NCBI GenBank assembly: GCA_034190085.1
Contig: JAXHTS010000071.1
Coordinates: 3,032 to 67,031 of the forward strand
DNA length: 64,000 nucleotides
From: Spirochaetota bacterium
GTDB lineage: Bacteria > Spirochaetota > UBA4802 > JAFGDQ01
Direction: 5' to 3'
Shown: positions 8,188 through 61,022 of the stretch, one piece after another
Layout of the letters: the number at the start of each line of letters is the position of its first letter
Position numbering within the stretch: position 1 is the stretch's first letter
Translations under genes and position numbers: made by a program
Notes under the pieces: model-generated
What the model was told of the DNA's origin: nothing
Database searches by the model: none
The model's input: the letters and a program-made list of their open reading frames with translations, nothing else

Positions 8188-9359
8188 TACTTCACCTCCT
8201 TCACCGCATCAACAGCCTTTTTAGCCCCATCAGCTAAATCGCCAGCTGCAATAATATTTTCAATGTCACTATTCTCTAAAATCTCTTTGGCAACATCACA
8301 ATTTGTGCCATCTAACCTGACAACAATAGGCACCTCAACCTTTGTCATTTTTGTTGCTTCTATAATTCCATTTGCTACCCTATCGCATCGAACAATTCCG
8401 CCGAATATGTTTACAAATATTGCCTTAACATTTTGGTCTGCTAATATAATCTCAAACCCCTTTGCCACTGTTTCCGGGCTAGCTGTGCCTCCGACATCAA
8501 GGAAATTAGCAGGTTCTCCGCCATAAAACTTTATTATATCCATAGTTGACATGGCTAAGCCCGCTCCATTAACCATACAACCTACATTGCCATCAAGTTT
8601 TACATAACTTAAATTGTGCTTGCCAGCTTCAGTTTCACTGGGTTCCTCTTCATCCAAATCCCTTAACTCTTCAATGTCCTTATTCCTGTCCAAGGCATTA
8701 TCATCAAATCCCATCTTTGCATCTAAAGCGAGAAATTTTCCTTCATCAGTTTTTATTAGCGGATTGATCTCCACCATATTCGCATCTTTATTCATATAGG
8801 CCTTATACAAGGCCTTTGCAAATCTGATGAATTCCTTTGTCTCATCCTTCGAAAGCCCCAAACCCTTTGCTAATTTTCTTCCATGATAACCAAGAAATCC
8901 TGTGGACGGATCAATGGCAGCCTGTACAATTTTTTCAGGAGTTTTTGATGCAACCTCTTCAATCTCCACACCACCTTCAGAAGAAGCCATAATTACATGC
9001 ATCTCCTTGGACCTATCCAGGACCATCCCAAGATAGTACTCAGCTTGAATATTTGCACCCTCTTCAATATAAATCTTCTTTACTTCTTTACCCTCCGGAC
9101 CGGTCTGATGGGTTATAAGCGTCTTCCCTAATATTTCATTAGCGAACTCCTTAACCTCATTAATGCTCTTTGCAAGTTTCACACCACCGGCTTTACCTCT
9201 GCCACCAGCGTGAATCTGAGCTTTTACGACCCACACCTTACCACCAAGCTTTTTTGCATTCTCAACAGCCTCTTCAGGTGTAAACGCCACATGCCCTCTT
9301 GGAGTAGGGACATTATAGTCTCTTAAAATTTCCTTTGCTTGATATTCGTGAATATTCAT
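8187..9359 (-). CDS. sucC: Succinyl-CoA synthetase beta subunit (ATP-grasp)
   Basis: [19 protein letters not shown]-terminus and ATP-grasp motifs. Translationally coupled to sucD. Confidence 0.9.
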
Positions 9360-10216
9360 ATCCTCCTCTCTTCTTATCTCAATATTTATAACTAGACTGA
9401 TCCTACAACTTCTATAATTTAATCTGGAATTTCAGCTTCACGCTCATCTTCCTGTCAACTTAGATCAATCTAAATCCACTAATTTAATAATAAAACATCC
9501 TTCACTTACTATTTTTATAATACACTAACCCCTTATCGGAAACTCAAATCAAAAATAATCCTATTTATAAATTTAGTATTAGAATTTACAGAAGCATTAA
9601 GCACAGGTCTCTTCAGTAAAATTTCCCCATTTCAAGTAACCTGTAAACCGCTTTTAAGATGCCTGACTATTGTTAAATTATTAACTCTATGGTTATATAT
9701 AAAATTCGGAGCGAAGATAAATCGGAAATTCCAAATGTCAAGAGAAAATGATATAATTATTAGCAAAAAAGGGAACCCAACTTTATCCATTCCCAGAACG
9801 ACATTTCATCAATCAATAGCAAATACAGAAATATTAATTTTTATTGACAGATTCAACATTAACAATTCATGTTGGTAAAATAATTCGTAATTCAAGTTAT
9901 TATTTTTTTATAATTATAATAATATATCTACTCTTTCAAGGTATCGAATATTGAAATGTTTATTAGTGTCAATCATTTCAATAAAGATATTTTCTCATTC
10001 ATTACACAAATAATATTATTTTGAGACAATGATTCAAGACTTATTTTGATTGTTGCTAGCTTAATCCAAAAGAGCATGATGAAGGGATTCAAATGAGAAT
10101 TATGAGTTCAAAGGAGTAAGTTGACCGTACATATTTGATTATAGTAAGACCCTTGAATCTCAAACAACTTTCTCGACAGAGTCGCCTATCTCGCTAAGAA
10201 TTTAAGGAGTTATACC

Positions 10217-12301: not shown

Positions 12302-12388
12302 AATTGCTGGTTGTGAATACAAAGATAAGATTAAATAATATAAGCCAATATATAAATTTAACTTATAAAGGGGGAAGAATATCAATAA

Positions 12389-14506
12389 ATGAACATTCCT
12401 GAATTCTATGATATTCCTCCTACTGACATATCCCGAGAATTTTTTTTCAACATTGGCGGCACAAATGGTTTTATGAGATGGGGTATATACTTATACCTCA
12501 TCGTTGCTATTATCTATCTTTCTTTTACTCTCATTAAAAGGGTGAGAATATGGAGAAAAGGAAATGATGAGTTAAGGACTGATTTTCCCGAAAAGAGGAT
12601 TGTCGCTATATTTAAATATGTTTTCCTTCAAGTTAAGACCTTCAGGGAGGCATATGCAGGCACAATGCATGGATGTATCTTTTTTGGTTTTTTGGGATTG
12701 TTCATTGTAATGTCACTTATTGGTCTTCAACATTATTTCACGGATCTGCTTTTCAATACAAAATTCATCTACGGTAACATATATTTAATATGGTCACTTA
12801 TAGGAGATTTCTTCGGCTTGATTATCATTACTGGTATTGTAATGGCATTCAGGAGAAGATATATATTAAAACCCAATCGGCTAGACACAAAGCCAATTGA
12901 TACATTTACCCTGATCCTCATTTTACTCATAGTTATTACGGGTTTCTTTAGTGAAGCCATGAGGATAGCAATTAGCGGCTTCCCTGAATTTGAAGTTTGG
13001 TCTCCCTGCGGTTATATACTTTCCCTTGCCTTTTCATTTTCAGACACACCGACAATTGAAGTAGCTCATTATATTAACTGGTGGATTCACACAATATCGG
13101 CTTTTGGATTCATCGGATTATTGGCATCTGGGAAATTGGGACACATACTAATTTCTTCCCTAAATGTATATTATCAAAATTTAAATACTGAAAATCCAGA
13201 CACTAAATACACTTTCCATATTATCCACCCTGCAAAGGTTGAGGATGATGATACCATTGGCGTTTCCAGGGTAGAGGAGTTTACCTGGAAGCAGCTTATG
13301 GATTGTGACGCATGTATGAGATGCGGCAGATGTCAGGACAGGTGTCCTGCTTACATAACCGAGAAACCATTATCACCAAAAAATATGATAAATGATATTA
13401 AGAATAACATGGATATTAGAATACCAAAACTGATAACAGCAGAAGATCCGACAAAAGTTGAATCACAAGCTCTAATAGGTGGCTCTGTTTTAGAAGATGT
13501 GATTTGGTCCTGTACAAATTGTGCTGCATGTCAGGAGGTCTGTCCAGTTCAGATTGAACATATGAATAAGATAACAGACATGAGACGGCATCTGGTTCTC
13601 AAAGAGAGAAAGATTTCAAGAGAACTTCAGACAGCCTTTAATAATATAGAAGAAAATTCCAATCCCTTTGGAATTTCATTTGCATCAAGGGGTGACTGGA
13701 TTACTGAAGAACTGGGTATTAAAGCCCTTTCCAAGGATCCGGATGTTGACTTTCTATATTTTGTTGGATGCTCAGCATCTTATGATAAGAGGAACCAGAA
13801 GGTAGCCTCTGCGTTGGTGAAAACATTGAAGATGGCTGGTTACAAAATTGGCATTCTTGGGTCTGAAGAAGCATGCTGTGGGGATTCTGCTATGAGAACA
13901 GGGAATGAATATCTATTCCATACACTTGCAGCGCAGAATCTTGAAACCTTTAATAACTATGGAGTAAAAAAGATCATTACCACATGTCCTCATGGATACA
14001 ACATCCTAAAAAAAGAATATCCAGAATTTGCCAAGGTTGGCGTTGATTCATATAATAATCCCTTGGAGTGCAATTATGAGGTCTATCATCATACAGAGAT
14101 TATTGCTGATCTATTACGTAAGGGACAGATCAAAATAACTAATGCCCTAATCGGAAAGATTACATATCACGATTCCTGCTTTCTCGGAAGATATAATAAG
14201 ATATATAATTACCCAAGGGATATTATCAGGGCAATACCTGGCACCGAGTTCATTGAGATGAACTGGCATCATAAGACAAGTTTTTGCTGTGGTGCAGGAG
14301 GTGGACTCATGTGGCTTGATGAAAATTTGGGAAGCAGGATTAATCAATTCAGAACAAAAGATGCACATGATACAGGTGCTACGAAAATAGGGACAGCTTG
14401 TCCATTCTGCTTGACAAAGATAACTGATGGTATTACTGAGCTTGATATTCAGAATATGGAAACCTGTGATATAGTGGAACTTGTATATAACTTAATGGAA
14501 AAATAA
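12389..14506 (+). CDS. Paralogous membrane-bound HdrE::HdrD-like Fe-S oxidoreductase, 705 aa (same architecture as the upstream gene)
   Basis: Same domain order. WWIHTISAF and GKLGHIL His in the membrane domain. CDACMRCGRCQDRCP and CTNCAACQEVCP. CCGDSAM...TTCPHGYN and CCGAGGG...ACPFC. Roughly half the residues are shared with the first copy. Confidence 0.75.
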   Translation: MNIPEFYDIPPTDISREFFFNIGGTNGFMRWGIYLYLIVAIIYLSFTLIKRVRIWRKGNDELRTDFPEKRIVAIFKYVFLQVKTFREAYAGTMHGCIFFGFLGLFIVMSLIGLQHYFTDLLFNTKFIYGNIYLIWSLIGDFFGLIIITGIVMAFRRRYILKPNRLDTKPIDTFTLILILLIVITGFFSEAMRIAISGFPEFEVWSPCGYILSLAFSFSDTPTIEVAHYINWWIHTISAFGFIGLLASGKLGHILISSLNVYYQNLNTENPDTKYTFHIIHPAKVEDDDTIGVSRVEEFTWKQLMDCDACMRCGRCQDRCPAYITEKPLSPKNMINDIKNNMDIRIPKLITAEDPTKVESQALIGGSVLEDVIWSCTNCAACQEVCPVQIEHMNKITDMRRHLVLKERKISRELQTAFNNIEENSNPFGISFASRGDWITEELGIKALSKDPDVDFLYFVGCSASYDKRNQKVASALVKTLKMAGYKIGILGSEEACCGDSAMRTGNEYLFHTLAAQNLETFNNYGVKKIITTCPHGYNILKKEYPEFAKVGVDSYNNPLECNYEVYHHTEIIADLLRKGQIKITNALIGKITYHDSCFLGRYNKIYNYPRDIIRAIPGTEFIEMNWHHKTSFCCGAGGGLMWLDENLGSRINQFRTKDAHDTGATKIGTACPFCLTKITDGITELDIQNMETCDIVELVYNLMEK

Positions 14507-24290: not shown

Positions 24291-25934
24291 TTACTCCTGA
24301 TCATTTTTTATGTAGAGTGTCTGAGTTGGGAATGGAATGGCGATATTCGATTCATTCAATGCCTTATAGATCGCCTTTGTGGCCTCCATCTTCTTAAATA
24401 GCTTATTATTGTAATCGGGTATCCAGAACTTAGCCTGGAAATTTAGCGAAAAATCACCCATTTCTATAAACAAACACTGTGGAGCTGGATCATCAGATAA
24501 ATCTTCAATTCCCTTCAATGCATTCAAAACAACCTCCTCTACTCTATCGACATCCGCTCCATAGGCCACACTAAAATTAACAACTATTCTAAAAGCGGGA
24601 TCTGGCAGGACAAAATTTTTAAACTTCGTATTAGAGAGATCGCCATTGGGGATGATTATCATCTCATTATCAAAGGTTAATAGCTTTGTATTCCTTAATC
24701 CCACCTCTTGAATTATACCCGTATCATCATCAATTGTCACCATATCACCCGCTGCAATTGAATGATCAAGGGCAAGAAAAATTCCTCCAATAAAATCTGC
24801 AAGACTATCCCTCACTGCAAAACCGACGGCTATACCCATTATCCCAATGGATGCTATAAAGGGACCAACATCAATATCAAACTTTGACAAAATTATAATC
24901 GTACCTATTATAACAACTGAAATCTTAATTAAACTCACAAAAAGCGGCATCAAATCCCTATTAACCCGGGGATTTATTTTATCCGCAACATCCTTCCCCA
25001 TAAAAAGCGCCAAACCCTCTATAACTAATATTATTTCATAAATAACTAATGCAATTATGAAAGCAACTATTATAGCGTTTAGTGTACTATATATATTGGG
25101 AGAGATATCCAATAAAATAAGTGATAACCTTATACCAATTAGTATAATAATCCACTTTAATGTTCTTCTAAACTTTCGAATTATACTCTCATCAATCGAT
25201 CCATTTGCCAATTCAATTATCCTCGGGAAAAACCGCTTTATAAGTAAAGAAGTCAGCTTGGAGAGAAAATAAAAAAAGAAAATCATTAAAATAGCAAAAA
25301 TCCATTTATTGCGTATAAATCTGCCAATCATAGACTCTTTAATTCTATCAAGATATTTCTTGGAACGGGTCTTCTCCCTCTTCTCTAAATTCAAGCTGTA
25401 CTTAGATAAAACATTTTTCACCAACCAATCTGTGCTACTTTGCGAAAATTTATCCAGGGTGTTAAGCAAATACTCATTCATCTCCCCATCAAAGGCATAA
25501 TCTCTATCAACATTCTCAACACCAAAAACTGCGACCTTATACTCGATCCTCATACTAGTCCCATGAATAATATACCTGCCATAAAGACCGATATCAGCAT
25601 TGATATCCTCAAAAAATCTCAAGGCCACATGCTTATCATACAACATCTCCGGGGTCATTCCTCTACGCTTGATCTCCCTATCCAGCAATCTTGAATCTAA
25701 AACTTTAAATCCAATATAATCGGATATATGCCCAGAGATCAGCTCTGGAATATATGTTGAAATATACTTGAGATCTGAATCAGAATAATTATAAAATGGG
25801 AGTATAACAATGATCTTATCGTTATTACTATCCTGTTCTTGGGTAGTATTTATAGCGTTTGTGTCAACAGCGAATGTGAAGGATAAATTCCCCAGCAACA
25901 GGGAAATAAATATTATTATACGAAAATAGATCAT
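24291..25934 (-). CDS. MscS-family mechanosensitive channel with an N-terminal periplasmic extension (547 aa)
   Basis: Signal peptide, multiple TM, the MscS pore helix region GIMGIAVGFAVRDSLADFIGGIFLALD and a C-terminal beta domain. Confidence 0.75.
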   Translation of the reverse strand: MIYFRIIIFISLLLGNLSFTFAVDTNAINTTQEQDSNNDKIIVILPFYNYSDSDLKYISTYIPELISGHISDYIGFKVLDSRLLDREIKRRGMTPEMLYDKHVALRFFEDINADIGLYGRYIIHGTSMRIEYKVAVFGVENVDRDYAFDGEMNEYLLNTLDKFSQSSTDWLVKNVLSKYSLNLEKREKTRSKKYLDRIKESMIGRFIRNKWIFAILMIFFFYFLSKLTSLLIKRFFPRIIELANGSIDESIIRKFRRTLKWIIILIGIRLSLILLDISPNIYSTLNAIIVAFIIALVIYEIILVIEGLALFMGKDVADKINPRVNRDLMPLFVSLIKISVVIIGTIIILSKFDIDVGPFIASIGIMGIAVGFAVRDSLADFIGGIFLALDHSIAAGDMVTIDDDTGIIQEVGLRNTKLLTFDNEMIIIPNGDLSNTKFKNFVLPDPAFRIVVNFSVAYGADVDRVEEVVLNALKGIEDLSDDPAPQCLFIEMGDFSLNFQAKFWIPDYNNKLFKKMEATKAIYKALNESNIAIPFPTQTLYIKNDQE

Positions 25935-40674: not shown

Positions 40675-41877
40675 CTATTTTTGTCTTATTCTTCCGTGAA
40701 ATTTTCTAGGAGCAACCATCTTCTCAATCCTATAAATAATAAATATAACTACACAGACAAGAAGTGCTAAAAGCCCCTTTTGGTAATATGGTAGGAATCG
40801 TGAACCCCTAGCTGATAGAATTCCATAAGCTCCGGATTCAATTTTGGTGGAGGGGTATACCTTCAGGATGTGATAACCTTCTAATTCAGCATCTATATTC
40901 AAATAGAATTCCCCTTCAGAGGGATCTAAAGAAATTATTAACCTATCATCCATATCAAAAAGATCAACCTGGAAGAGACCCGCCCTGGAGTCAAAATAGA
41001 TAGTGTTCTTTCCCCTTGATAAATAAATTCTGTAGGTCCTACTGCTCTCCCATCCCCTAACGGAATCGACAATTGAACTGCTGACATCCTGTTCCCATTT
41101 GTCAGCTATATCTATTAAGTTACTAAGTATATGCCTGTATGAAATTCTGTAGATCATATACCTCAACAACTCTCTATTGTATCCCTTATTATGATAACTG
41201 GTATACAGGGCCTCTCCCTCTCCCCTCTTAAGGATTGAGATGATTGGACCAAATTTAATACCCTTTGGTGTCTCAAAGGAGCCTTCAGCAACAACCTCCG
41301 CCTCTTTAACAGACTTAACTGCAATCCATCCCTGATGAAACATATAAAGGGCTAATTTTTCATTCCTGCAAAAGCAATATAACTCATCCTTTAGCTCAAG
41401 GGTTACCCTACCAGCCATTCCCATATTCGGAAAGTCATCGAAAAATTCAAAGGGTTTTAAAGAACCCTGAAGAAATTCATATGAATAACCAGAGAAATAC
41501 CCCACCCCCCCATCATGAATAAAAGATTTAATATTATTACAAATTTTTTCTCTATTTACTTCAGAAATGTCGTTTTTCAATAAAACTGCCTGAACCTTAG
41601 TCCCTCTTGAAAGAATATTCACGTTAGTCTCGATTGGCTTATACATCCCACAGGGAAAAAAAATTGCCCTATATTTATTATATATCTCCTCATTCTCAAG
41701 ATCATGACATTTTATCAAATGATATGGAATTCCATATCTTCTTAAAGCCCTCTCAACCCTATCAAATTTACCTTTAACTACCGCAATCCCTTTGATATCA
41801 TTTGTAGCAAAAAGTTTATTTAGGGGAAAAAATAACAGAAGGTGGGAAATAATAATTAAATAATGTAACAATTTCAC
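40675..41877 (-). CDS. Exported hypothetical protein with a C-terminal TM anchor and basic tail (400 aa)
   Basis: Signal peptide MKLLHYLIIISHLLLFFPLNKLFA. C-terminal hydrophobic helix GLLALLVCVVIFIIY followed by RIEKMVAPRKFHGRIRQK. An internal HDGGVGYFSGYS motif is faintly reminiscent of GATase1/ThuA-like folds; that is speculative. 6-bp gap to the upstream gene. Confidence 0.4.
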   Translation of the reverse strand: MKLLHYLIIISHLLLFFPLNKLFATNDIKGIAVVKGKFDRVERALRRYGIPYHLIKCHDLENEEIYNKYRAIFFPCGMYKPIETNVNILSRGTKVQAVLLKNDISEVNREKICNNIKSFIHDGGVGYFSGYSYEFLQGSLKPFEFFDDFPNMGMAGRVTLELKDELYCFCRNEKLALYMFHQGWIAVKSVKEAEVVAEGSFETPKGIKFGPIISILKRGEGEALYTSYHNKGYNRELLRYMIYRISYRHILSNLIDIADKWEQDVSSSIVDSVRGWESSRTYRIYLSRGKNTIYFDSRAGLFQVDLFDMDDRLIISLDPSEGEFYLNIDAELEGYHILKVYPSTKIESGAYGILSARGSRFLPYYQKGLLALLVCVVIFIIYRIEKMVAPRKFHGRIRQK

Positions 41878-41883
41878 GATCGG

Positions 41884-43827
41884 TTATATATTAATCTCCT
41901 TTATCTTTCTTAAAATCTCTCTCCTCTCATCAAGCCTTGATAAGATGCCTTCATCAATACATTCATTGGCAAGCTGATATGAAAAAGCGATTATGTGAAT
42001 AATGATGCCTCCCTTCAAAGAATTGCTAAGCACGCTCTTTCCTATAAGTTGATCCGAGAGCAGGCGCATATCCTTTAATCCTATTACACGACAATCAGAA
42101 AAAGGGATAGGTCGATCCCCCTCAACCCCTTCCCTCTCCGCTACTTTTACATCCATTGGCGTTCGTATAAGATCAGTATTTGATATTTCACTACCCTTCT
42201 CTTTCCATCGTCTGTGTATATCATATAACCTCTGCAACTCAGCTCCAATATTAAAGAAGAGATCCCCTATAAGCAATATTAACCTTTCAACCTGAGCCAT
42301 TGAAGGGATTTTCCCCTTTAGAATTTTTAAAACCTCTTCCCTGCCTACTGCCATCCTGGGATTATTGCTTCTAAATAAGTGCATCTCCCCTAAAAGTTCA
42401 GAAAGCCGCTTCATCTCATTTGAAAAATATTGAGCATTAAAGATCATTCCTTCATGATGATTCTGATCCTTATCCTCGAAAGTAATAATTGATCCATTAA
42501 AAAAGGGGACAAAGGAATTATTAAAAAAATTTATACATTCATCAAGAAAGGTAAGAAAATCCCTCTCATAAACAACACTATAATCCTTCTGTTTCCTATT
42601 ATCAATTTTCCACTGATCCTCAAAGGCCCGATAAAGAATATTCTGACCCTCAATTTTTAATTTAATGAGTGAATGAAGTTCATTATAGGGGATCAACTCC
42701 TCCTTAAGCTTTCCAATATGCCTTTCCTTTCTGGATTCCTCATCTTTACCAACTGTCTTTAAAAAATCAATACTATAATCCCAAACCTCACCATTTATTT
42801 GCGGTGCGGTAATATTAAAATAGTCTGTAATATCTTTGATTTCAACATCCTTCAGGAAGATAAGCGCCTCAATCAATATAATCAATAACTCAGATAAAGA
42901 GCTAATCCCATATCTTAAACGAAGCTGATTTGATAAAACACTCTCTGAATCAATTCTTGTGGGTAAAAAAGATCGTAAAATCATCATATACTCATAAATC
43001 TTCTTCTCCTTATCAAGATTTCTCTTCTCCTTTTCCCTCTTCAAACTCTCAGAATCAGTTTGATCAATCTTCTCCTTCAATAAATCATCTGACAATCTCA
43101 ATTTATTCTCAACAAGCAGAATAATCTGTTCCTTTGTCTCGATATCTATCGTTAAAAAAGAAAAAAAATGTACGATATAACTCTTTAACTCCAATTCAAA
43201 TGAGCGCCTATCCATCCACTTCAATTCATCAAAACTGTACTTGACAATAGGGGTTTCCATCATCCATCTTCTAAATATCCGCAAATAATTAAAATGTGTA
43301 GCATCCTCGATTGATTTGTCCTTGAGAATCTCCATTAAAATAGCAGGCAATCTGGATAATATCATTTCCTGATAAGATATAATCCACCGAATTATCTTTA
43401 ACAATCTTCTGTTGGGGATTAATCTCCTCTTTATCCCAATACCCAATCTATTATTTGTACGAATAAGATACCTCTTCCTAAATATTTTGAGTTTTTTATA
43501 CCTCCAATAAATATCCTTGATAAATTGATTAGTATCTAAGGGATCAGATTTATTCACGTCAGAAGAAGCAGTATCCTGTCTATATTCACCCCTTGGGGAT
43601 TTAGTATCCATTCTATCACTACCCTTACTACTCTTTGATTTATCATCACAAGACTTAATAAGATCTACAATGGCGCTATATCTCTCACCCGAGGGTATCG
43701 TCGTGTTCTTGATTAAAGACCGTACTATCTCCATTTTATCAGATGGGATATCCTTACTCGCAAGAAGAGCCTTTGCCCTCCTCTCTATCTTCTCATTTTC
43801 CTTATCACTTAACATATTTATATCCAT
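41884..43827 (-). CDS. Hypothetical cytoplasmic protein (647 aa), no recognisable domain
   Basis: Long ORF, very basic/helical. It is the first gene of an apparent four-gene minus-strand unit ending in parA-parB. Confidence 0.4.
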   Translation of the reverse strand: MDINMLSDKENEKIERRAKALLASKDIPSDKMEIVRSLIKNTTIPSGERYSAIVDLIKSCDDKSKSSKGSDRMDTKSPRGEYRQDTASSDVNKSDPLDTNQFIKDIYWRYKKLKIFRKRYLIRTNNRLGIGIKRRLIPNRRLLKIIRWIISYQEMILSRLPAILMEILKDKSIEDATHFNYLRIFRRWMMETPIVKYSFDELKWMDRRSFELELKSYIVHFFSFLTIDIETKEQIILLVENKLRLSDDLLKEKIDQTDSESLKREKEKRNLDKEKKIYEYMMILRSFLPTRIDSESVLSNQLRLRYGISSLSELLIILIEALIFLKDVEIKDITDYFNITAPQINGEVWDYSIDFLKTVGKDEESRKERHIGKLKEELIPYNELHSLIKLKIEGQNILYRAFEDQWKIDNRKQKDYSVVYERDFLTFLDECINFFNNSFVPFFNGSIITFEDKDQNHHEGMIFNAQYFSNEMKRLSELLGEMHLFRSNNPRMAVGREEVLKILKGKIPSMAQVERLILLIGDLFFNIGAELQRLYDIHRRWKEKGSEISNTDLIRTPMDVKVAEREGVEGDRPIPFSDCRVIGLKDMRLLSDQLIGKSVLSNSLKGGIIIHIIAFSYQLANECIDEGILSRLDERREILRKIKEINI

Positions 43828-50569: not shown

Positions 50570-53500
50570 TCAAAATAGTAGGGTGAGACTGAATCCAATC
50601 TCATAGGAGCGTATCTCCCTATTTATACCATTAGTGTCTCTATTCCTGAATCTCTCCAGTGCCCAACGCGCTGAAAGCCCCCCTTGAATATTCTTATGAA
50701 GATCCATTGTCAGTTTCCCGATTATCAGATGCTGGTCGTATGGCTCAGGAGAAACAGTATCCGAATAATCATATCTATTGAGTAAAAGAGAATATTCCAA
50801 ACTTATGATTGGCAATGATTCAAGTTCATATAAATTGGAGAATAGATTATATATCAATTGAACATCGGTTTCATATAAAATTGAAAAATTATATCCCCGC
50901 TCCCTCTCCTTGAATGAATCTATTATTTGCATATTAGTCACATAGATATCATCACTTTTCGACCTCTTTGATTCGTCTGTAGAAATATACTCCCTTCTTT
51001 TTCTTAGCCTGTAATCCATTCCAATGTTTAAGCTCAGACTTGTTCTGTCCCATTTAAATATTATTCCCATGTTTGGGGAATGGGTATCCTCTTCAATATT
51101 TGAAGTTATGATCATATTCCTACTAAAATCATACCCGGCATTCACACTTGCTGAATGATATGGCATCCCTATTACATTGGGCCTAAAAAACCAAAAATTG
51201 AAAATCTGCATAAGATCAATAATTATGTTTAGGTTATCGCTCACTGTGACTACCTGCTGAGGGGTTCCGTATATATTTTGTCGTTCGCTAACCTGATTTA
51301 AGCCCATTCCAAAATTCAGAACAATCCACCGGAAATCAAGAGTAGAGCTTACACCAATGTTATCAATCAATCTCAGATTGTTATTATAGTCTATGGCTGA
51401 TGATCCATTGGTATAATTTATCTCCCTGTTAAACTTTCTGTATGCATAATCTCTACCATTTGCAAAGTTTCCTCGCCCCATAAAAGGATACCATGGGGGG
51501 AAGTCAAAAGGATTCATACAAATGTCAGCAAATCCATTGTATACCCTCCTTATACCATAATCCTCATCAAGGGAGGATGTCCCCTCCCCCTCGTATGGAA
51601 CATCTATCTCTTGAAAGAATATAGATCGTGAATAACTAATATTTAAATTTCGAAAAAACTCCATCCCTTTTATCTTGTTGAAAGCGAAGGGCAAATCGAG
51701 TCGATTAGAGACTAGCGTGTTTGCATCTTTGGATCTAATATATTTATCTGATATTATCCTCTCACTATCATCGTAATCACTAAAATTATCCTCAATGTAG
51801 TTGAAGACCAATCTCAACTCTGGTGAGATCAGGGTTAGCTTCCTTAAACCAAAACTTAGTCCTATCTCTTTATCCCTTCCAACGAATTTAAAGTCCTTAT
51901 TGTATACAAAGGGGAGATGAAATCCACCATCAACCTCCGACAAAATCTCCATATCATTCTCATCCATCCTCCCCTTCAATTCAACGATCTCATGTGTGCT
52001 ACTATTAACAGATGGTTTGAAGAATAAAAATGAGTTTTGATAATCTGCGCGAATTTGAGCCCCACCCTTTTGCCTCTTCTCCACCTCGTTGAGTGAGATG
52101 AACTGCTCAAGCTCTCCCAGCCCCTTCTCAACAGAATTTCGTCCTATGTCTTCCTCCTGAAAAAATGCATCCATAACAATTGTAGTTGTTATGTTTCCCC
52201 AGAGTTTACTATTGATCCTATTTTGTAAAACCAAGGTTGGTGTGTAAACCTGGTTCTGGGTGTGTGCGTTGATCCTGAAATCCGATATATATCTCTCTTT
52301 CAGATTATCATATATATCCTGTTTGTATATCAACTTTATACTGGGGAAGATGTATTTATCAGATACAAAATCAGACTCAAATAAGAGACTCTTCTTCTCT
52401 GTCTCTCCTCTACTCTCTTCATGCACCTCTTCATTGAAGCTATCAGTTATTGAATCCTCAACTGAAAAATTTAATTGAACCCTCCAGTTTGGCAGAATGT
52501 TAATAGATGAAAAGACCTCATTGCTCTTCTCCCTAATATCATCCATTGTCTTCCCTATGGTGTTGAAGTTGTACCCATGCCCCTTTCCTATATACTTGAT
52601 AATAAAATCTGATAACACCGGTGTGCCGATATCGGATATATACAATGGTCTCTTAAAGGAAATCTTCCCCTCATACCAGTAAGCGCTATCCCGCAGCATT
52701 TCTGGTTCACTGACATACATGTCGTTTACCCAGAATTTTCCGCTATTTACGCCACTAATCCCAATTTCAATAAATGAGATCCTTTTCATATCTGGATTAC
52801 CGGCAATATTACTAATCTCGACATCACCATTAGATCCGCTCTTAAGCTTCAATCTTATCTCCCTCCATATGCCAATATAATCCATTGAAAATCCATACTC
52901 ATAATAATCATCCTCTGATGATCCGATCTTTAGGGTTATTGAATCACCAATTGAAAACTCCCTGAAGTTAAACCATATATTCATTGTCTTGTAAAATCTG
53001 ATGTCCATCGGACGTAAGAACTTTCTGGAAGCAGAACCCGTTGAATTGTCATACTCAATCTGGAGCGCTGTCTCCCTCTCTTTTGATAATTCTACATCAT
53101 TTTTATCCCCATATAGAGATTCATAATTATTATTAACCAAAGATATATATGACTCAGCCCTATAATCGGCATCATTTAAAGTATCAACCTTAGTAATACG
53201 AAGAGATCCACTGTCGTCCCTCCAACTCGAAGATACAAATCGAATGCTGTTAATATAAATAGTACCCTTTACCGCGCTATTCCTCAAAAGATAGAGCCTT
53301 AATGACTCCACCTGTTTAAGGATTTCGATCTGACTGTCATCGATTCTATCTCTATCCAGATAAATTCTAATATTTTCCCAATCAGTATTGGATCCATCAA
53401 TGGATATTGCAGAGGATGGAGTTGTGAATACCCCTGGGAGGGTGATTACATGTTCATCTTTATCAAGTATCCCATTCCTATTGAGGTCTTCACTATTGAG

Positions 53501-56215
53501 CGCGCCATCTCCCATGGTTATCTGACTAAGCTTAGGGCCTGTGCCAATTATCGTTTGAACATTTCCATCAAATTGATACCCGATATCCTCCTCTATCCCA
53601 GCGGAGGGATCATAATCGAGAAATCCATTATTATTGACATCCTCAGTATCGAGCAGATCATCATCATCGGAATCCTCGTTTATCCTTCCGATGTCAATGC
53701 AGAAATCAACTTCACCACTAACACCCTCTGCGCGATACCATATCTCTACATATTGCAATCCTGAAAAATCAACAGCCATAGCAGAGGGCATTGGGGTTAC
53801 AATTGGAATGCAATCACCAGTAGAGAAATCGAAATTCAAAACCAGGGACCTCTGCGTTTCAAGCGGTTGGATTGAATCAGGTATATGTCCAATCGCTACA
53901 TTATAAGGACCTGGTTTTATTGAATATGAGACGCTATAGGGGATAAAGTCAATCCCCCTTAGTGTATCAGGATGAAATGGATCTCTATAGTAGTAATAAT
54001 ACAAAATTCCCCTATTGTCTTGAGCTAAACCGATAGGCATCGATGAAAGCCACCAGTCCTTCTCGGATAGAGAGAGGGGTACAATCTCATCAGTTGCCTC
54101 CATGCTATCGATTAGTGCTTTGCCAAAGGTATTGATTTTTTTGTAGCTTCTAGCATATTCCGCATAACAATCTATTTCCACTGGAACTGATTTGGGCTTT
54201 ATGCCAGTAATATTATTTATGAATCTCTTTAATCTTGCTTCTCCAAGATGTAGTGACGTGTCTCCCTCAAAAACAAGGGTCTGTTCTGGCTCACTTCCGA
54301 TATTAGGAATTACATCATCCCCGGATTCCCTTGTATAAAGGAGAGTACCCCCAACGTCAAGACTCCTATTTACCCTATAATCACCACGTATTCCGCCACT
54401 AAAGGACTTAGACTGTGAATTAAAGGGTAGATACTCGTATTTTACCTCGATCTCTGTCTTTGGGCCAATTAGCGGATTATTGGGATCAATGAATTCTAAA
54501 AAACCTGAAGTATAATCGAGTGAGTATAATGAGGGTGCTATTTCTAAGCCGTTTATTCGTATCCGAACACTCTCTGGAATTATATTAAAATGCTTTAACT
54601 GAAAGCTTCTGGCCTCCCTGTAATAATCAATTCTAATCTTATAAATAGATGAAAGATAAGCATTCGTCTGTTGCTTTTCAGAATAGATCACATCTGCATC
54701 ATTCATATCCAAGAGCTGCCGGAAGGGCTCCCTAAGGTGGAACTCTACTATACCATTGGTATAATCCACAGAATATTTCCCCAACTTAGCAACATCACTC
54801 TTTGGCAAAAGTGTATTTTCTCTATAAAAAAGTATTCTGAAATTATCCTCCAGAAGCTGTCTGTCCCCAATATTATAGAATGATCGTATCTCATATATAT
54901 CACGATTGATCCTGCCATCACCATTGACATCATCACCATGAGTCTCATCTAGGGAGTATCCATATTTGATGAATACAAAGTTCTTGCCTGAAAACATCCC
55001 ACCAGGGTGATTTGAACTACCTGGAGATAGAGCGCATGGATCTGCGGTAGATCGGTCTTTAAGCCAATATACTGCAAAAATATTCGCATTCTCTGGAATA
55101 TTTTTAATAAAAGTAATTAAGCCAGTGGCATAATTTATCTTATAATCTATGCCGGAAATCAATTTTGAATAATAACAATTATCTAAGGTGAGTCTAATGG
55201 CGTTATAATTATTCTGCGGATTCTTATCATCAATGTATATTTCAAAACCAGATGGTTCAATATTTACAGGATAGAGAGTATAAATTTCTGGATTTGACGG
55301 TGATGACGTGACCACGACAGAATTTAATACCTCTCCATCAGAAGGGATAGATATCCTATTATCATACCTAATAAATGGTTCGATCTGATAGTATATGTTT
55401 CTTATGTATTGATATTCTGATAGCCTGATATAACTCGGAGAAGCATTGCCACGAAATATCTCAATCTCTGTCTCACCCCTTGATACGCTGCCAAAGGCCC
55501 TGATTCTCAAGTTCTCCTTCTTTAAGGCTACATCAATCCCAATACCCTTCATTGAGGTTTCATCAAAAGCAACATACTTTGACTTCTCAAGATTTATATC
55601 AATCTCACCGGCATTTATCTCCCTAATAACCTCTTCCTCACGAATAGCCCGATATCGCATCACATAGTGATTGTCGCTCTTATCACTATCATGGTCAATA
55701 TAAACGGTAAGGCGTCTACCGATATCGCCTTCCATATGAAGTTGCAGTTCATGCTCTGCATTGAATCCATCCTTAATAACCCTTGAAACTGGTTTGTCCT
55801 CATCATATCTACGGTAACTATCCTTTGTAAATTTCGATTTGCCATATAGCAGATCAATCTTAAGCGAACCATAAGAGTTGATATTCACCTCACCCCTCTT
55901 CTCAATGCTGAATCCCTCATCAAAAAGGTTTTCTGTAATAGGTTTATATTTTATTGAGGTGACATATTTCTCCCAATCCCCCTCAAGATATACAAATGGA
56001 TGAGTGATGTTCTCGTTTATTTCATTAATAAATATATTCTCTTTTTGAAGAGAGATGCCTACTTCTCCTCCTTCTGAGTTTGACTCAATATATCTTAGCA
56101 GGATGTCTTTGAAACCTCTTTCCACATAAGTTACTTTTGAAAAGGCAACAGCCAATAAGCATGTTGTCCCCAAATATATTAATAACTTAATACAAAGGGA
56201 CACCCTTATTATCAT
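50570..56215 (-). CDS. Giant secreted outer-membrane protein (1881 aa) with C-terminal beta-barrel signature; SprA-like candidate
   Basis: N-terminal signal peptide. Two D-x-N-x-N-G-x-x-D Ca-binding-type loops (DVNNNGFLDYD, DLNRNGILDKD). Extensive beta-rich Y/F/N/S composition. Terminal ...IGFSLTLLF with C-terminal Phe. Confidence 0.5.
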   Translation of the reverse strand: MIIRVSLCIKLLIYLGTTCLLAVAFSKVTYVERGFKDILLRYIESNSEGGEVGISLQKENIFINEINENITHPFVYLEGDWEKYVTSIKYKPITENLFDEGFSIEKRGEVNINSYGSLKIDLLYGKSKFTKDSYRRYDEDKPVSRVIKDGFNAEHELQLHMEGDIGRRLTVYIDHDSDKSDNHYVMRYRAIREEEVIREINAGEIDINLEKSKYVAFDETSMKGIGIDVALKKENLRIRAFGSVSRGETEIEIFRGNASPSYIRLSEYQYIRNIYYQIEPFIRYDNRISIPSDGEVLNSVVVTSSPSNPEIYTLYPVNIEPSGFEIYIDDKNPQNNYNAIRLTLDNCYYSKLISGIDYKINYATGLITFIKNIPENANIFAVYWLKDRSTADPCALSPGSSNHPGGMFSGKNFVFIKYGYSLDETHGDDVNGDGRINRDIYEIRSFYNIGDRQLLEDNFRILFYRENTLLPKSDVAKLGKYSVDYTNGIVEFHLREPFRQLLDMNDADVIYSEKQQTNAYLSSIYKIRIDYYREARSFQLKHFNIIPESVRIRINGLEIAPSLYSLDYTSGFLEFIDPNNPLIGPKTEIEVKYEYLPFNSQSKSFSGGIRGDYRVNRSLDVGGTLLYTRESGDDVIPNIGSEPEQTLVFEGDTSLHLGEARLKRFINNITGIKPKSVPVEIDCYAEYARSYKKINTFGKALIDSMEATDEIVPLSLSEKDWWLSSMPIGLAQDNRGILYYYYYRDPFHPDTLRGIDFIPYSVSYSIKPGPYNVAIGHIPDSIQPLETQRSLVLNFDFSTGDCIPIVTPMPSAMAVDFSGLQYVEIWYRAEGVSGEVDFCIDIGRINEDSDDDDLLDTEDVNNNGFLDYDPSAGIEEDIGYQFDGNVQTIIGTGPKLSQITMGDGALNSEDLNRNGILDKDEHVITLPGVFTTPSSAISIDGSNTDWENIRIYLDRDRIDDSQIEILKQVESLRLYLLRNSAVKGTIYINSIRFVSSSWRDDSGSLRITKVDTLNDADYRAESYISLVNNNYESLYGDKNDVELSKERETALQIEYDNSTGSASRKFLRPMDIRFYKTMNIWFNFREFSIGDSITLKIGSSEDDYYEYGFSMDYIGIWREIRLKLKSGSNGDVEISNIAGNPDMKRISFIEIGISGVNSGKFWVNDMYVSEPEMLRDSAYWYEGKISFKRPLYISDIGTPVLSDFIIKYIGKGHGYNFNTIGKTMDDIREKSNEVFSSINILPNWRVQLNFSVEDSITDSFNEEVHEESRGETEKKSLLFESDFVSDKYIFPSIKLIYKQDIYDNLKERYISDFRINAHTQNQVYTPTLVLQNRINSKLWGNITTTIVMDAFFQEEDIGRNSVEKGLGELEQFISLNEVEKRQKGGAQIRADYQNSFLFFKPSVNSSTHEIVELKGRMDENDMEILSEVDGGFHLPFVYNKDFKFVGRDKEIGLSFGLRKLTLISPELRLVFNYIEDNFSDYDDSERIISDKYIRSKDANTLVSNRLDLPFAFNKIKGMEFFRNLNISYSRSIFFQEIDVPYEGEGTSSLDEDYGIRRVYNGFADICMNPFDFPPWYPFMGRGNFANGRDYAYRKFNREINYTNGSSAIDYNNNLRLIDNIGVSSTLDFRWIVLNFGMGLNQVSERQNIYGTPQQVVTVSDNLNIIIDLMQIFNFWFFRPNVIGMPYHSASVNAGYDFSRNMIITSNIEEDTHSPNMGIIFKWDRTSLSLNIGMDYRLRKRREYISTDESKRSKSDDIYVTNMQIIDSFKERERGYNFSILYETDVQLIYNLFSNLYELESLPIISLEYSLLLNRYDYSDTVSPEPYDQHLIIGKLTMDLHKNIQGGLSARWALERFRNRDTNGINREIRSYEIGFSLTLLF

Positions 56216-57288: not shown

Positions 57289-58052
57289 CTTGCCTTCCTA
57301 TTCCAACTAAATCGTATGACTTTTTCTATTTGATATGCGTTTACTCAATCATAACCCCAATATATGATAATGGATAATCATTCTAAAATAGAATCAAAGA
57401 GGTATGCAGATTGATGACGCTCCAGCAAAAAATCAACTCCAATAATATTTACATTGATAAAAGCTAAATACTAACAATATAGTCGGATATAGAAAGCATA
57501 CTTCAATTAAAAGTAGTTTGTATGAATGTTGATTGTACAATACTTTATATTATCATTACACTAATATCATATCTTCCAAGCTTTATACCCTAAACATAAA
57601 TGGAATCAATGATTCAAATTAACCTTTTCGGTGTATTGCGATAAGACTTTTACGCAATTGCCTCATTAGTATTTCCACAACATACTCGTGACAAATACTA
57701 TGTCATGGAAATCCATTGACGAAGTCCAATATAAAGGACTTATACCATAGCCTTTATCAAAATAAACAACCGCCTATTTTAGATAATATTATTAATTTAA
57801 GCAACCATTTTTTATGGGAATTAAATTTATTATGAATTATGATATTCAAATATAGGATAAATATTATTTTCACGACAATAATAATGATAATAACAGAATG
57901 TGCCAGAGGTTTTTTTAAAGTGTTTAAAAATATAATAAAACTTGTTGAAATATCACTATATTCTAATAATTCTTGCATTCAATTATCATCTTTGCTTCAA
58001 AAAATTGCCCTGAATAATAATAATCGTTCAAAATAACAGGAGGACAACCTAT

Positions 58053-58814
58053 ATGAATTCTTCAGATTCTGTTAACATAGAGAAAACCCTATCTTCTGCA
58101 ATCGATAAAGCGCTTCATCAGGCCAACAATCTGCTTCATATGATCAAGGACTATAAAAAAATAAAAATAAAACAGATTCTTGATCTGGAATACAATCACT
58201 ATTCAATAGATGCTAATGGAGTCGTAAGCATATCATCACGGTGGCCTATTGTTAGGTTGCATGAATTTATTTCTGATGATCTCGGCATCGTACAGGGTGC
58301 GGAAGATATATTGATATATGAAAGGTATATTCAACATGAGGGATTTCCATTAACAGAGTCCAGGTTTCTGACCAGTCTGCGATACAACCCAGAGAATTGT
58401 TGGCATGTTCGCGAGGATATTCAAAATGAATTTCCACATTATGTGGTGCATGGTTCGGATATTCTTATGGTGCAGGCTGGGAGTTTTGCTGGAGCTTCAG
58501 CAATATTGCCAATATTTCATGAAGATGTGATTCTGGGCAATGGATGCATAAGAATCAGGGTAAAGGCTGAAATTTGCGAGGTATTTTATTTGCTAAATGT
58601 CCTTCACTACTATTATTCACAAGGAATAATACAGATTTCACATAAGGGAGCCCGAGACAAAATCACTATAGAATCGTTATTAAACATTCAATTACCGAAT
58701 CCTCCGATGGAGGAGCAGAAGCGTATCGCTGACACACTTCTGAAGCTGTCTGGGGCCATGGTTGCACAAACAACTTACAGCGATGAGATGCTGAATCTTA
58801 AAGGTATGATTTAG
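58053..58814 (+). CDS. Type I restriction-modification specificity subunit (HsdS)-like protein, single target-recognition domain (half-S), orphan
   Basis: TRD-opening motif SRWPIVRLHEFI, GSDILMVQAGSFAGASAIL and the conserved inter-domain motif LPNPPMEEQKRIADTL (cf. LPPLxEQxxI of HsdS). Strong AGGAGG RBS. No hsdM or hsdR in the window. Confidence 0.55.
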   Translation: MNSSDSVNIEKTLSSAIDKALHQANNLLHMIKDYKKIKIKQILDLEYNHYSIDANGVVSISSRWPIVRLHEFISDDLGIVQGAEDILIYERYIQHEGFPLTESRFLTSLRYNPENCWHVREDIQNEFPHYVVHGSDILMVQAGSFAGASAILPIFHEDVILGNGCIRIRVKAEICEVFYLLNVLHYYYSQGIIQISHKGARDKITIESLLNIQLPNPPMEEQKRIADTLLKLSGAMVAQTTYSDEMLNLKGMI

Positions 58815-59147
58815 CGTCATTAGCAACTGCTTGACAATTCATATTATTATTAATCATAAATTGTATGATAGTTAAAAATGAGAACTCCTTATAATGCGTT
58901 GCTTTAGTATAACTATCCTTGTTATAGAGCACTACTCATTAATATCATAATTAATTGATCACAATCATCATGTTTAGAATAAGTCACTCAAGTAATCTTA
59001 ACAGGACTATCTGTGTAGGGATTGAACAAATATTATTATGAAATCGCTGCTAATGGTTAACCATTTATATCTTACGATTACGGCTTTTAATGATATAATG
59101 ATAATTACTAGGAATAATTATACTTCAATAACAAACAGGTTACAGGG

Positions 59148-61022
59148 ATGATCAGTGTTGAGAACCTAACTAAAAATTTCGGGAACAGGCTACTACTTGA
59201 TGAAGTTAGCCTAAAGATTAATTCCAGAGAACGTGTTGGCCTTGTTGGGCGTAATGGACATGGGAAGACCACACTTTTCCGTATCTTAATCGGCGAGGAA
59301 CCTTATGACAAGGGCAGCATCATTATTCCCAAGTACTATCGTATCAGCTATGTTCGTCAAATAATTGATTTTACCCAGGATACAGTATTAAAGGAAGGCA
59401 TGACGGGACTTATGGAAGGAGAACTCGATCATTTTTGGAAAGTCGAGAAAATCCTAGCAGGTCTTGGATTTTCTAATAAGGATATGCAACGAGACCCCAG
59501 AGATTTCTCAGGAGGCTACCAAGTTAGACTGAATCTGGCTAAAGCGCTTGTTTCCGAACCAAATCTTCTTCTTTTAGATGAGCCTACCAATTATCTTGAT
59601 ATCACCTCTATTCGTTGGATTGAACGTTTTCTATTAAACTGGCCTAACGAATTGTTACTTATCACTCACGACAGGAGCTTTATGGACAAGATCGTAACAC
59701 ATACAATTGGAATTCATCGAAAAAAAACGCGCAAAATACTCGGAAATACAGGGAAGCTTTACGCGCAGATTGCTCAAGTGGAAGAGATATATGAAAAAAC
59801 CCGCCTTAAGGATGAGCGTCGGAGGAAAGATGTTGAGCAGTTCATAAACCGTTTCAGGGCTAAAGCTAGACTTGCCAATCTGGTGCAGTCACGTATTAAG
59901 AGCCTGGATAAAATGCAGAAGCGGGATAAGCTTGAAAAAATTCAGACACTCGACTTCTCCTTTAGAGATAACCCATTTTCAGGAAAAAGCGTTCTGAGCG
60001 CTCGGGATGTCTACTTTTCATACAATTCCGATATCCCGCTTATCAAAAATTTTAATATCACTATTAAACCGCGCGATAGAGTCTGTATAATAGGTAAAAA
60101 TGGAAAAGGAAAAACAACGCTTCTAAAGCTATTGGCAGGGACTCTCAATCCTCAAAAAGGTGAAATCATAACTACTCCTAATGTGATTAAAGGATTATTT
60201 GAACAGACAAACATCAAAAGCCTTATAGACAAGAGAACAGTTGAAGAGGAGCTTCTCTATTCACACTCAGATGTGGATAGACAGATGGCTCGCGATATAT
60301 GTGGGGCCATGATGTTTAAGGGCGATGATGCGCTGAAGAGGATCAACGTGCTTTCAGGTGGAGAGAAGAGCAGGGTCATGCTTGGGAAGCTGCTCGTAAC
60401 CCCAGTAAATCTGCTGCTCTTGGATGAACCGACTAACCATCTTGACATGGAGTCATGCGATGCTCTGCTTTCAGCGATTGACAACTTTGATGGCGCTGTA
60501 ATTATTGTAACACACAATGAAATGTTCCTTCACGCCCTTTCGGAAAGGCTTATAGTATTTCAAAATAATCGCATTTATGTTTTTGAGGGGAATTATCAAA
60601 ATTTTTTAGATAATAATGGATGGGAAGAAGAGAAAATATCAATTATATCTACTAATAAAGATGATGCGCTAGATAATGAATATAATACAAAAATCAGTAA
60701 AAAGGATATTAGACGACATCGCTCTCAAATAATCACTGACCGGTCGAGTGTCTTAAAACCCCTTAAAGCACAAATAGACCAGATAGAAGCGGAGATTGAA
60801 GCCAAAGAAGAGGAACTGGAAGAGAACAACAGGTTCATGATAGAGGCGTCAGCATCCCAAGATGGCGAAAGGATATCGGAACTTTCTCAGTCCATACATA
60901 ACTGCAAATCTGTCATTGACAGCCTATTCGATGAGCTTGAGGAGCTAACAAACAACTTTAATGAGCAAAGCGCTCTCTTTGAGAAAAGACTAAATCATCT
61001 TGAACATATCAAAGATTTCTAG
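59148..61022 (+). CDS. ABC-F family ATPase (soluble, two NBDs, C-terminal coiled-coil); probable translation factor rather than transporter
   Basis: Two Walker A motifs (GRNGHGKTT, GKNGKGKTT) and two signature motifs (FSGGYQVR, LSGGEKSR). No TMD. Charged helical tail. Confidence 0.8.
   Translation: MISVENLTKNFGNRLLLDEVSLKINSRERVGLVGRNGHGKTTLFRILIGEEPYDKGSIIIPKYYRISYVRQIIDFTQDTVLKEGMTGLMEGELDHFWKVEKILAGLGFSNKDMQRDPRDFSGGYQVRLNLAKALVSEPNLLLLDEPTNYLDITSIRWIERFLLNWPNELLLITHDRSFMDKIVTHTIGIHRKKTRKILGNTGKLYAQIAQVEEIYEKTRLKDERRRKDVEQFINRFRAKARLANLVQSRIKSLDKMQKRDKLEKIQTLDFSFRDNPFSGKSVLSARDVYFSYNSDIPLIKNFNITIKPRDRVCIIGKNGKGKTTLLKLLAGTLNPQKGEIITTPNVIKGLFEQTNIKSLIDKRTVEEELLYSHSDVDRQMARDICGAMMFKGDDALKRINVLSGGEKSRVMLGKLLVTPVNLLLLDEPTNHLDMESCDALLSAIDNFDGAVIIVTHNEMFLHALSERLIVFQNNRIYVFEGNYQNFLDNNGWEEEKISIISTNKDDALDNEYNTKISKKDIRRHRSQIITDRSSVLKPLKAQIDQIEAEIEAKEEELEENNRFMIEASASQDGERISELSQSIHNCKSVIDSLFDELEELTNNFNEQSALFEKRLNHLEHIKDF

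Follow-up and report, generated by a model that had tools for sequence, protein, structure and literature searches.

The public-database label ‘restriction endonuclease subunit S’ implies a defense function for the genes that carry it, and one such gene, standing on its own in a 64-kb stretch of a Spirochaetota genome (assembly GCA_034190085.1, contig JAXHTS010000071.1), raises the question of what its product does where no modification (hsdM) or restriction (hsdR) gene lies nearby. The whole 64,000-nucleotide stretch that was analyzed is hereafter called the window. The gene (58053..58814, + strand) encodes a 253-aa HsdS-like protein with one target recognition domain (TRD), here called the S-like protein, whose sequence is also that of NCBI entry MDY6935342.1 (‘restriction endonuclease subunit S [Spirochaetota bacterium]’). 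On balance, the S-like protein and its relatives, here called the solo family, are probably exapted recognition or adaptor proteins that act independently of restriction-modification (R-M), a reading favored by synteny with core genes, long-standing vertical inheritance, a TRD that is conserved, a trimmed stalk, and an acid shift. Instead of the defense function that the label implies, the evidence points to an S-subunit derivative that is old, lineage-wide, and fixed in the chromosome, and whose gene is housekeeping- or accessory-like in its behavior.

Identification as an HsdS-like protein

The initial annotation of this locus had described a 253-aa open reading frame (ORF) with two specificity-subunit motifs and a strong ribosome-binding site, and all of these were located. 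RWPIVRLHEF occupies residues 63-72 and LPNPPMEEQKRIADTL residues 214-229 of the S-like protein, and an AGGAGG ribosome-binding site, read from the sequence, stands 9 nt before the ATG (58038..58043, +). The annotation had also called the product HsdS-like with a single TRD, and a profile search confirmed this, as PF01420 matches the protein in a single stretch (E 1.2e-10; bit score 42.3, cutoff 22). Moreover, the PADLOC Specificity_I models match with a best E of 7.9e-17, and matches at ~4e-8 were obtained with the S subunits of known structure 5ybb, 3okg, and 1yf2. The TRD domain that characterizes HsdS is thus present. The canonical succession of TRDs and conserved regions (CRs), TRD1-CR1-TRD2-CR2, was not found, as there is one Pfam stretch, one TRD was modeled, and the members of the family are 220-272 aa long.

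Predicted one-headed architecture

An AlphaFold2 (AF2) monomer model of the S-like protein, built with a 36-sequence family alignment, has a predicted local distance difference test (pLDDT) score of 93.3 and a predicted TM-score (pTM) of 0.88. In this model, an N-terminal helix (residues 3-43; 58059..58181, +) equivalent to the central CR1 helix of two-TRD HsdS leads into an acid-shifted TRD fold (residues ~50-215; 58200..58697, +), which was also recognized by Foldseek, and is followed by a C-terminal helix (residues 219-252; 58707..58808, +) equivalent to the distal CR2. Over the full chain, Foldseek aligned the model with the S subunit of M. jannaschii (1yf2_A, TMq 0.73 over 252 columns) and with PacII S (0.72). 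The family hidden Markov model (HMM) aligns to CR1 + TRD2 + CR2 of canonical HsdS with E values down to 1e-36 to 1e-40, and places the N-terminal helix on the ‘...SVDEAIEK...LKKGLMQELLT’ segment. The solo family lacks two canonical segments, namely ~12 residues at the start of CR1 (PPLxEQxKIAxIL) and ~20 at the end of CR2 (LMQxLLTGKxRV). In the canonical antiparallel coiled coil, the start of CR1 and the end of CR2 lie side by side, next to TRD1, and the S-like coiled coil is trimmed where the canonical TRD1 would sit. The C-terminal helix bears a family-specific LSGxMVAQE motif. We infer from the model that the S-like protein is a one-headed S, in which a shortened two-helix stalk carries a single TRD; with coiled-coil helices predicted on both sides of the TRD, it would be one-headed rather than a TRD with a single helix. 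Amongst the BFVD viral structures, giant-virus methyltransferase-TRD fusions were the only matches.

Canonical HsdS (1yf2; PacII S, 7vs4) has the TRD fold and the CR helices in common with the S-like protein. On the other hand, canonical HsdS has two TRDs, a basic and hypervariable TRD sequence, and genes that are encoded with hsdM/hsdR, whereas the S-like protein has one TRD, which is acidic and conserved, and a gene with neither partner nearby. Single-TRD forms of HsdS are known. The dimerizing half-HsdS proteins (EcoR124I, EcoDXXI, and NgoAV derivatives, as well as engineered S. aureus forms and lactococcal single-TRD S subunits) have, like the S-like protein, a single TRD and a CR helix, and half-S proteins can rebuild a functional S by dimerizing, with M acting in trans (PMC6158711, PMC12418389). 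However, the half-S forms that have been described consist of the N-terminal half (TRD1 + CR1), truncated within an R-M locus or found on plasmids (PMC12418389, PMC10030836), whereas the S-like family corresponds to the C-terminal half with both helices and appears to be an old, monophyletic, core chromosomal family with no plasmid or phage matches. The S-like gene therefore differs from this class both in having more than one CR helix and in lacking an origin in an R-M locus. The homodimerizing half-S proposed in the initial annotation accordingly gives way to a one-headed S, as helices are modeled both before and after the TRD. A third comparison is offered by hsdS_short of the staphylococcal hsdRSMS operons, which is short, conserved, and non-variable, and for which its authors argue against a truncated remnant (PMC10030836). 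The hsdS_short gene lies within a complete Type I operon with hsdM, hsdR, and a long hsdS, whereas the S-like gene is solitary.

Esub1 of Streptococcus pyogenes (PDB 8vsq, 8vsr) is a half-S-like homodimer for which no convincing HsdM binding was found, and its authors concluded that it is not an S subunit and proposed a stand-alone DNA-binding factor (PMC11754733). Like the S-like protein, Esub1 is annotated as an S subunit, has a TRD-like head with a helix, and is encoded away from hsdM. Foldseek aligned the two proteins over the TRD and the C-terminal helix (TMt 0.78, E 3.6e-7) at 14% identity, and neither phmmer nor hmmsearch retrieved Esub1 from the PDB, so that no sequence relationship is detectable. 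Unlike the S-like protein, Esub1 is ~185 aa long, has no N-terminal helix, contains an insertion helix, comes from another phylum and gene context, and has a known partner, the phage paratox. The S-like protein is thus not a member of an Esub1-like family and resembles it at the fold level only, although by analogy it may work like Esub1.

A solitary family with vertical inheritance

Only 11 relatives of the S-like protein came out of a word-indexed search of 5.8 billion proteins; they share 35-49% identity along their whole length and are ~243-250 aa long except for one with a probably mis-called start. The exception (P0009, at positions 5463-6407 of homologous locus L007) is a 314-aa product with a 70-aa N-terminal extension unlike the other members. 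With an exhaustive profile search, which covered 1.84 billion cluster representatives, ~25 further clusters were added, giving ~35 in all, with lengths of 220-272 aa and end-to-end matches, and these solo clusters scored above or amongst ordinary two-TRD HsdS of 400-440 aa. Full-length orthologs share about 32-49% identity across lineages. Every organism-named member is assigned to Spirochaetota, ‘Spirochaetes’, or a Leptospiraceae metagenome-assembled genome (MAG). A scan of GTDB found two loci only, and tblastn gave no match in 72,556 plasmids or 50,697 phage genomes.

In a neighbor-joining (NJ) tree on the TRD columns, made without bootstrap, the 36 solo representatives form one clade that contains none of the two-TRD relatives (0/108), so that the solo family is, by its sequences, apparently monophyletic. 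The best explanation is a single origin, in which the C-terminal half of a Type I specificity subunit with two TRDs became a protein of its own. A PP..EQK helix cap is conserved in the family, as in canonical HsdS, and K35, Q222, and L230 are invariant in its helices. The invariant or near-invariant residues that the family has gained for itself are K35, E176, H185, and the LSGxMVAQE motif. A putative metal site (H156/C165/C175/H185) was considered and rejected, as it is invariant among the 11 close members and not across the 36-member family.

The S-like gene has diverged in step with its neighbors. Between the window and L001, the S-like protein is 47.5% identical, compared with 48% for MscS, 54% for SucC, 58% for SucD, and 60% for an ABC-F ATPase. 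For each pair of closer genomes, the synonymous divergence (dS) is similar for the S-like, ABC-F, and MscS genes, and the ratio of nonsynonymous to synonymous divergence (dN/dS) is 0.23-0.47 (about 0.3 overall) for the S-like gene, ~0.15 for ABC-F, and 0.09-0.19 for MscS. Judging from these rates, the S-like gene is about twice as relaxed as its neighbors, yet under purifying selection. The similar dS and these dN/dS values indicate that the gene is likely functional and vertically inherited. The TRD core is conserved across the solo family, and its divergence parallels that of the neighboring core genes, which differs from the variable, recombination-exchanged TRD expected of HsdS. The initial annotation had also raised horizontal acquisition, to be judged by comparing composition with the flanks. 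The gene has a guanine-cytosine (GC) content of 0.388 and a third-position GC content (GC3) of 0.370, equal to those of its neighbors (0.37-0.40), so that composition shows no sign of recent acquisition, and with no plasmid or phage homologs the idea was dropped.

Acid shift of the target recognition domain

The members of the solo family have a median isoelectric point (pI) of 5.35 and a median net charge of -6, with 34/36 being net-negative, whereas the best-matching halves of 108 two-TRD relatives have a median pI of 9.04 and a median net charge of +4 (Mann-Whitney p 1e-15). The acid shift is located in the TRD, where the summed mean charge of the columns is -4.4 in the solo family compared with +4.1 in the 108 canonical relatives. 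At seven positions of the window protein, a basic residue frequent in the canonical relatives has been lost in the solo family. These are position 141 (K in 88/108), position 89 (K in 83/108), position 123 (K in 75/108), position 129 (R in 68/108), position 94 (R in 54/108), position 210 (K in 53/108), and position 76 (K in 50/108). Position 129 aligns to R257 of PacII S, a mapping that is only indicative because the profile alignment is weak (E 5.6e-5). In PacII S, R257 makes a DNA-backbone contact that was validated by mutagenesis (PMC9613975).

Genomic contexts of the solo family

The statement in the initial annotation that no hsdM or hsdR gene lies nearby holds for the whole window, which extends 58 kb upstream and 5 kb downstream of the gene. 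Pfam scans covering the 42 ORFs that encode 120 aa or more, together with inspection of both window ends, found no methyltransferase, hsdM, hsdR/helicase-nuclease, or recombinase in the 64 kb, and no hsdMS locus is adjacent. The window proteins with matches are housekeeping proteins (among them SMC, SucCD, H+-PPase, ThyX, MscS, FeoAB, MetRS, ParAB, GuaA, and SmpB). In more than 20 homologous loci with six arrangements, no R-M methyltransferase, HsdR, or recombinase was found within the flanks of +/-8-10 kb, and a PADLOC scan of 45 neighbor ORFs did not recover any R-M gene either. The adjacency to hsdM/hsdR that is typical of HsdS was thus found neither in the window nor in the homologous loci.

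In the first arrangement, that of the window, the M23 peptidase gene (-) is followed by the S-like, ABC-F, acyltransferase, and Mdh genes. The second (L001, L003, and L005-L008) has the order RseC, MscS, S-like, and ABC-F, followed by sucDC (-), and in four of these loci the S-like and ABC-F genes overlap by 4 bp in place of the 333-bp spacer of the window. In the third (L014), an MscS gene with a 4-bp overlap precedes the S-like gene, a 94-aa ORF, and an acyltransferase gene. The fourth (L012, L013, L022, and L023) runs from ABC-F and two Lcl_C genes through a kinase/SpoIIE phosphatase hybrid (-) and a 360-390-aa protein (-) to the S-like gene; L013 is a shorter contig and has no ABC-F match. 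The fifth, found in a Leptospiraceae clade, has the S-like gene, in 3/5 loci closely preceded by an MNT/HepT pair, and then a conserved 121-aa protein. In the sixth (L017-L020), a nitroreductase gene (-) is followed by the S-like gene and BcrAD/DUF2229.

Several small genes accompany the S-like gene in these arrangements. The 121-aa protein of the Leptospiraceae clade is acidic, has no family match, and is always encoded 3' of the S-like gene (L002 2013-2378, L009 3640-4005, L015 3129-3494, L016 8789-9154, and L010 ~7440-7810). The MNT (Polbeta)/HepT genes of the same clade are a toxin-antitoxin pair inserted upstream of the S-like gene. A conserved helical protein of 189-209 aa is encoded directly downstream of the S-like gene in L012 (8844-9413), L013 (5318-5947), and L023 (10841-11410). 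A shared small downstream partner was considered and rejected, as the 121-, 94-, and 189-209-aa proteins are mutually unrelated and absent from the window.

The ABC-F ATPase of the window (59148..61022, +; 624 aa) has two ABC domains, a PtIM linker, and a C-terminal coiled coil. It matches ABC_tran (twice), ABC_tran_Xtn, and ABC_tran_CTD in Pfam, and its matches to the NCBIfam ABC-F models stay below the equivalog cutoffs. Orthologs with 58-61% identity are found next to or near the S-like gene in L001, L003, L005-L008, L012, L022, and L023. The S-like gene is directly upstream of the ABC-F ortholog in two lineages (the window and L001/L003/L005-L008), and the two genes are 5.5 kb apart in a third (L012, L022, and L023). 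In the window, MscS (24291-25934, -) and sucCD (7315-9359, -) are located 33 kb and 49 kb, respectively, from the S-like/ABC-F pair. As MscS and sucCD flank the pair in genomes of the L001 type, the pair has survived a rearrangement that placed them elsewhere in the window.

Membership of the S-like gene in the MADS defense system, as its mad5 specificity protein, was also considered and rejected, as the mad5 match (3.6e-12) is weaker than that to the generic Specificity_I models and no other mad genes are nearby. PADLOC assigned the L012 ABC-F ortholog, which is 58% identical to that of the window, to mad3 (1.5e-37). Both the mad3 and the mad5 assignments look like generic ABC and Specificity similarity.

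Possible roles of the S-like protein

If the solo family has been exapted, the S-like protein would no longer be the specificity subunit of a local R-M enzyme. It would rather be a stand-alone recognition or adaptor protein, acting as a monomer or as a stalk-mediated dimer by analogy with Esub1, and its ligand could be DNA, bound in an altered way or more weakly, or a protein partner. The initial annotation had listed a recruited S-like module of another system as one of three options, and this option is the best supported. Several observations weigh against exaptation. The context searches reach the window and the flanks only, and a conserved hsdM could be present elsewhere in these genomes. 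Truncated single-TRD S subunits can act in trans with an M encoded elsewhere (PMC12418389, PMC6158711), and in PacII the CR helices build a four-helix bundle with the M subunits (PMC9613975). Since both CR helices of the S-like protein are homologous to those of HsdS and the hydrophobic pattern of the helices is similar in the solo proteins and their canonical relatives, M binding could be retained. For the same reason, helix hydrophobicity was set aside as uninformative about a loss of HsdM binding. Moreover, 13% of the canonical relatives are likewise net-negative in the matching half, all solo-family members come from MAGs or metagenomes, and the NJ tree carries no bootstrap support.

These points lend some weight to a second explanation, which we consider unlikely though deserving of attention: that the S-like protein is a genuine Type I specificity subunit acting in trans with a far-off chromosomal hsdM and possibly hsdR. 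Such a subunit could form a one-headed M-S complex on a short asymmetric site or a dimer on a palindromic bipartite site. The clear HsdS homology across helix, TRD, and helix fits this explanation, as does the experimental finding that single-TRD S proteins work with M from elsewhere (PMC12418389, PMC6158711), and the strongly conserved helices (K35, Q222, L230, and LSGxMVAQE) suggest a conserved protein partner. However, no M or R gene was found in the 58 kb upstream and 5 kb downstream of the S-like gene or within +/-8-10 kb in the more than 20 homologous loci, and the TRD shows conservation and vertical descent rather than variation and exchange. The acid shift with the loss of conserved basic TRD residues and the absence of the start of CR1 and of the terminal CR2 motif also argue against it. 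A half-S working with a distant HsdM, another of the options in the initial annotation, thus keeps a place in the discussion but has become less likely in view of the synteny, vertical descent, conserved TRD, truncated CR helices, and acid shift.

A third explanation, which appears improbable, is that the S-like protein is an accessory factor of the neighboring ABC-F, whose acidic head or stalk would bind ABC-F or would mimic or recognize ribosomal nucleic acid and thereby tune this translation factor. The recurrent linkage with ABC-F is the only hint of a partner. The S-like gene is directly upstream of ABC-F in the window, L001, L003, and L005-L008, with the 4-bp overlap in four of them; the pair stayed intact while MscS and sucCD moved in the window genome; the two genes are within 5.5 kb in L012, L022, and L023; and the S-like protein is acidic. 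On the other hand, the genes are not adjacent in the Leptospiraceae clade, L014, or L017-L020, their order is reversed in the L012 group, and the linkage can be explained as eroding ancestral synteny (MscS, S-like, and ABC-F), while the ABC-F itself is an ordinary member of its family. It is doubtful that the TRD fold, which in restriction enzymes normally reads DNA, has been exapted in spirochaetes into an acidic one-headed partner of the co-inherited ABC-F, mimicking nucleic acid or serving as an RNA- or ribosome-directed adaptor, which would tie a restriction-enzyme module to the control of translation.

The least plausible explanation, which the initial annotation had offered as a remnant or shuffling cassette, is a decaying remnant left after the loss of hsdM/hsdR or a silent phase-variation cassette recombining with an expressed hsdS elsewhere; despite the single TRD and the S-subunit annotation, it is rejected because the ORF is intact and full length with a strong ribosome-binding site, full-length orthologs at 32-49% identity exist in many genomes under purifying selection (dN/dS 0.16-0.47), and neither a recombinase nor a second hsdS copy was found in the window or the homologous loci. 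A 21-nt inverted repeat (19/21 matching; 57410-57430 and 58484-58504) that overlaps the conserved FAGASAI codons would fit a cassette, but its score is borderline (13, compared with 9.97 +/- 1.03 and a maximum of 15 for shuffled sequences, p ~0.01-0.05) and 17 other loci lack it. The combination of shared repeats and a nearby recombinase that marks a shufflon or inverton was thus not found. The reverse complement of the upstream arm (57410-57430) reads FAGASSI, echoing FAGASAI, the most conserved motif of the family.

The solo family is not categorically new, as orphan, truncated, and non-canonical S-like genes are already known. What is new is a monophyletic solitary family found so far only in Spirochaetota, with a predicted one-headed CR1-TRD-CR2 architecture, a housekeeping-like inheritance, and electrostatics that differ markedly from those of canonical relatives. 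If the exaptation of the family is true, it would be the second independent case, after Esub1, of the reuse of the TRD/coiled-coil scaffold outside restriction-modification, and it would bear on the domestication of R-M parts and on how the R-M and defense content of genomes is counted. Under the same condition, the S-like protein would also be a candidate sequence-specific regulator or adaptor that lends itself to study, in a phylum that has received little attention. A role with a distant HsdM would instead point to a conserved epigenetic system in these spirochaetes, with a lineage-wide methylation pattern.

Immediate surroundings and other features of the window

The S-like gene is flanked upstream by genes for an M23 peptidase (-) and a 1881-aa protein (-) and downstream by genes for the ABC-F ATPase, an acyltransferase, and malate dehydrogenase (all +), and the Pfam-based calls agree with the peptidase/giant protein and ABC-F flanks of the initial annotation. 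Between the M23 peptidase gene (-) and the divergently oriented S-like gene (+), the intergenic region (57289..58052) is 764 bp long, as had been described, and has a GC content of 0.274. The very AT-rich gap nevertheless does not stand out in the window, where each of the 16 intergenic regions above 150 bp has a GC content of 0.26-0.35, compared with 0.37-0.41 for genes, and where a second long gap of 857 bp is located at 9360-10216. As long AT-rich intergenic regions are the rule in the window, the 764-bp gap is ordinary for this genome. Only promoter-like consensus matches were found in it, and tblastn with the S-like protein, MscS, and other neighbors from the homologous loci detected no pseudogene or second S copy there. 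A replication origin at the gap, where the GC skew changes sign (~58 kb), was considered and dropped, because the skew follows the gene strand across the window and dnaA is absent from it. No tRNA and no Rfam match, either at the gathering threshold or at E<=1, was found in the window. The spacer between the S-like and ABC-F genes (58815..59147) is 333 bp long and has no terminator-like site on the + strand.

Three other features of the window are of note. The 1881-aa protein (50570-56215, -) has no Pfam match but a sub-threshold match to TIGR04189, the outer-membrane translocon SprA/Sov of the type IX secretion system (T9SS) (E 5e-29; bit score 100, cutoff 200). Two ORFs of 400 and 647 aa (40675-43827, -), directly downstream of parAB, have no Pfam or NCBIfam match. 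Two tandem paralogues of ~700 aa (10217-12301 and 12389-14506, +) have 4Fe-4S dicluster and CCG (HdrD-like) domains, and this 10217-14506 region stands upstream of the H+-pyrophosphatase gene.

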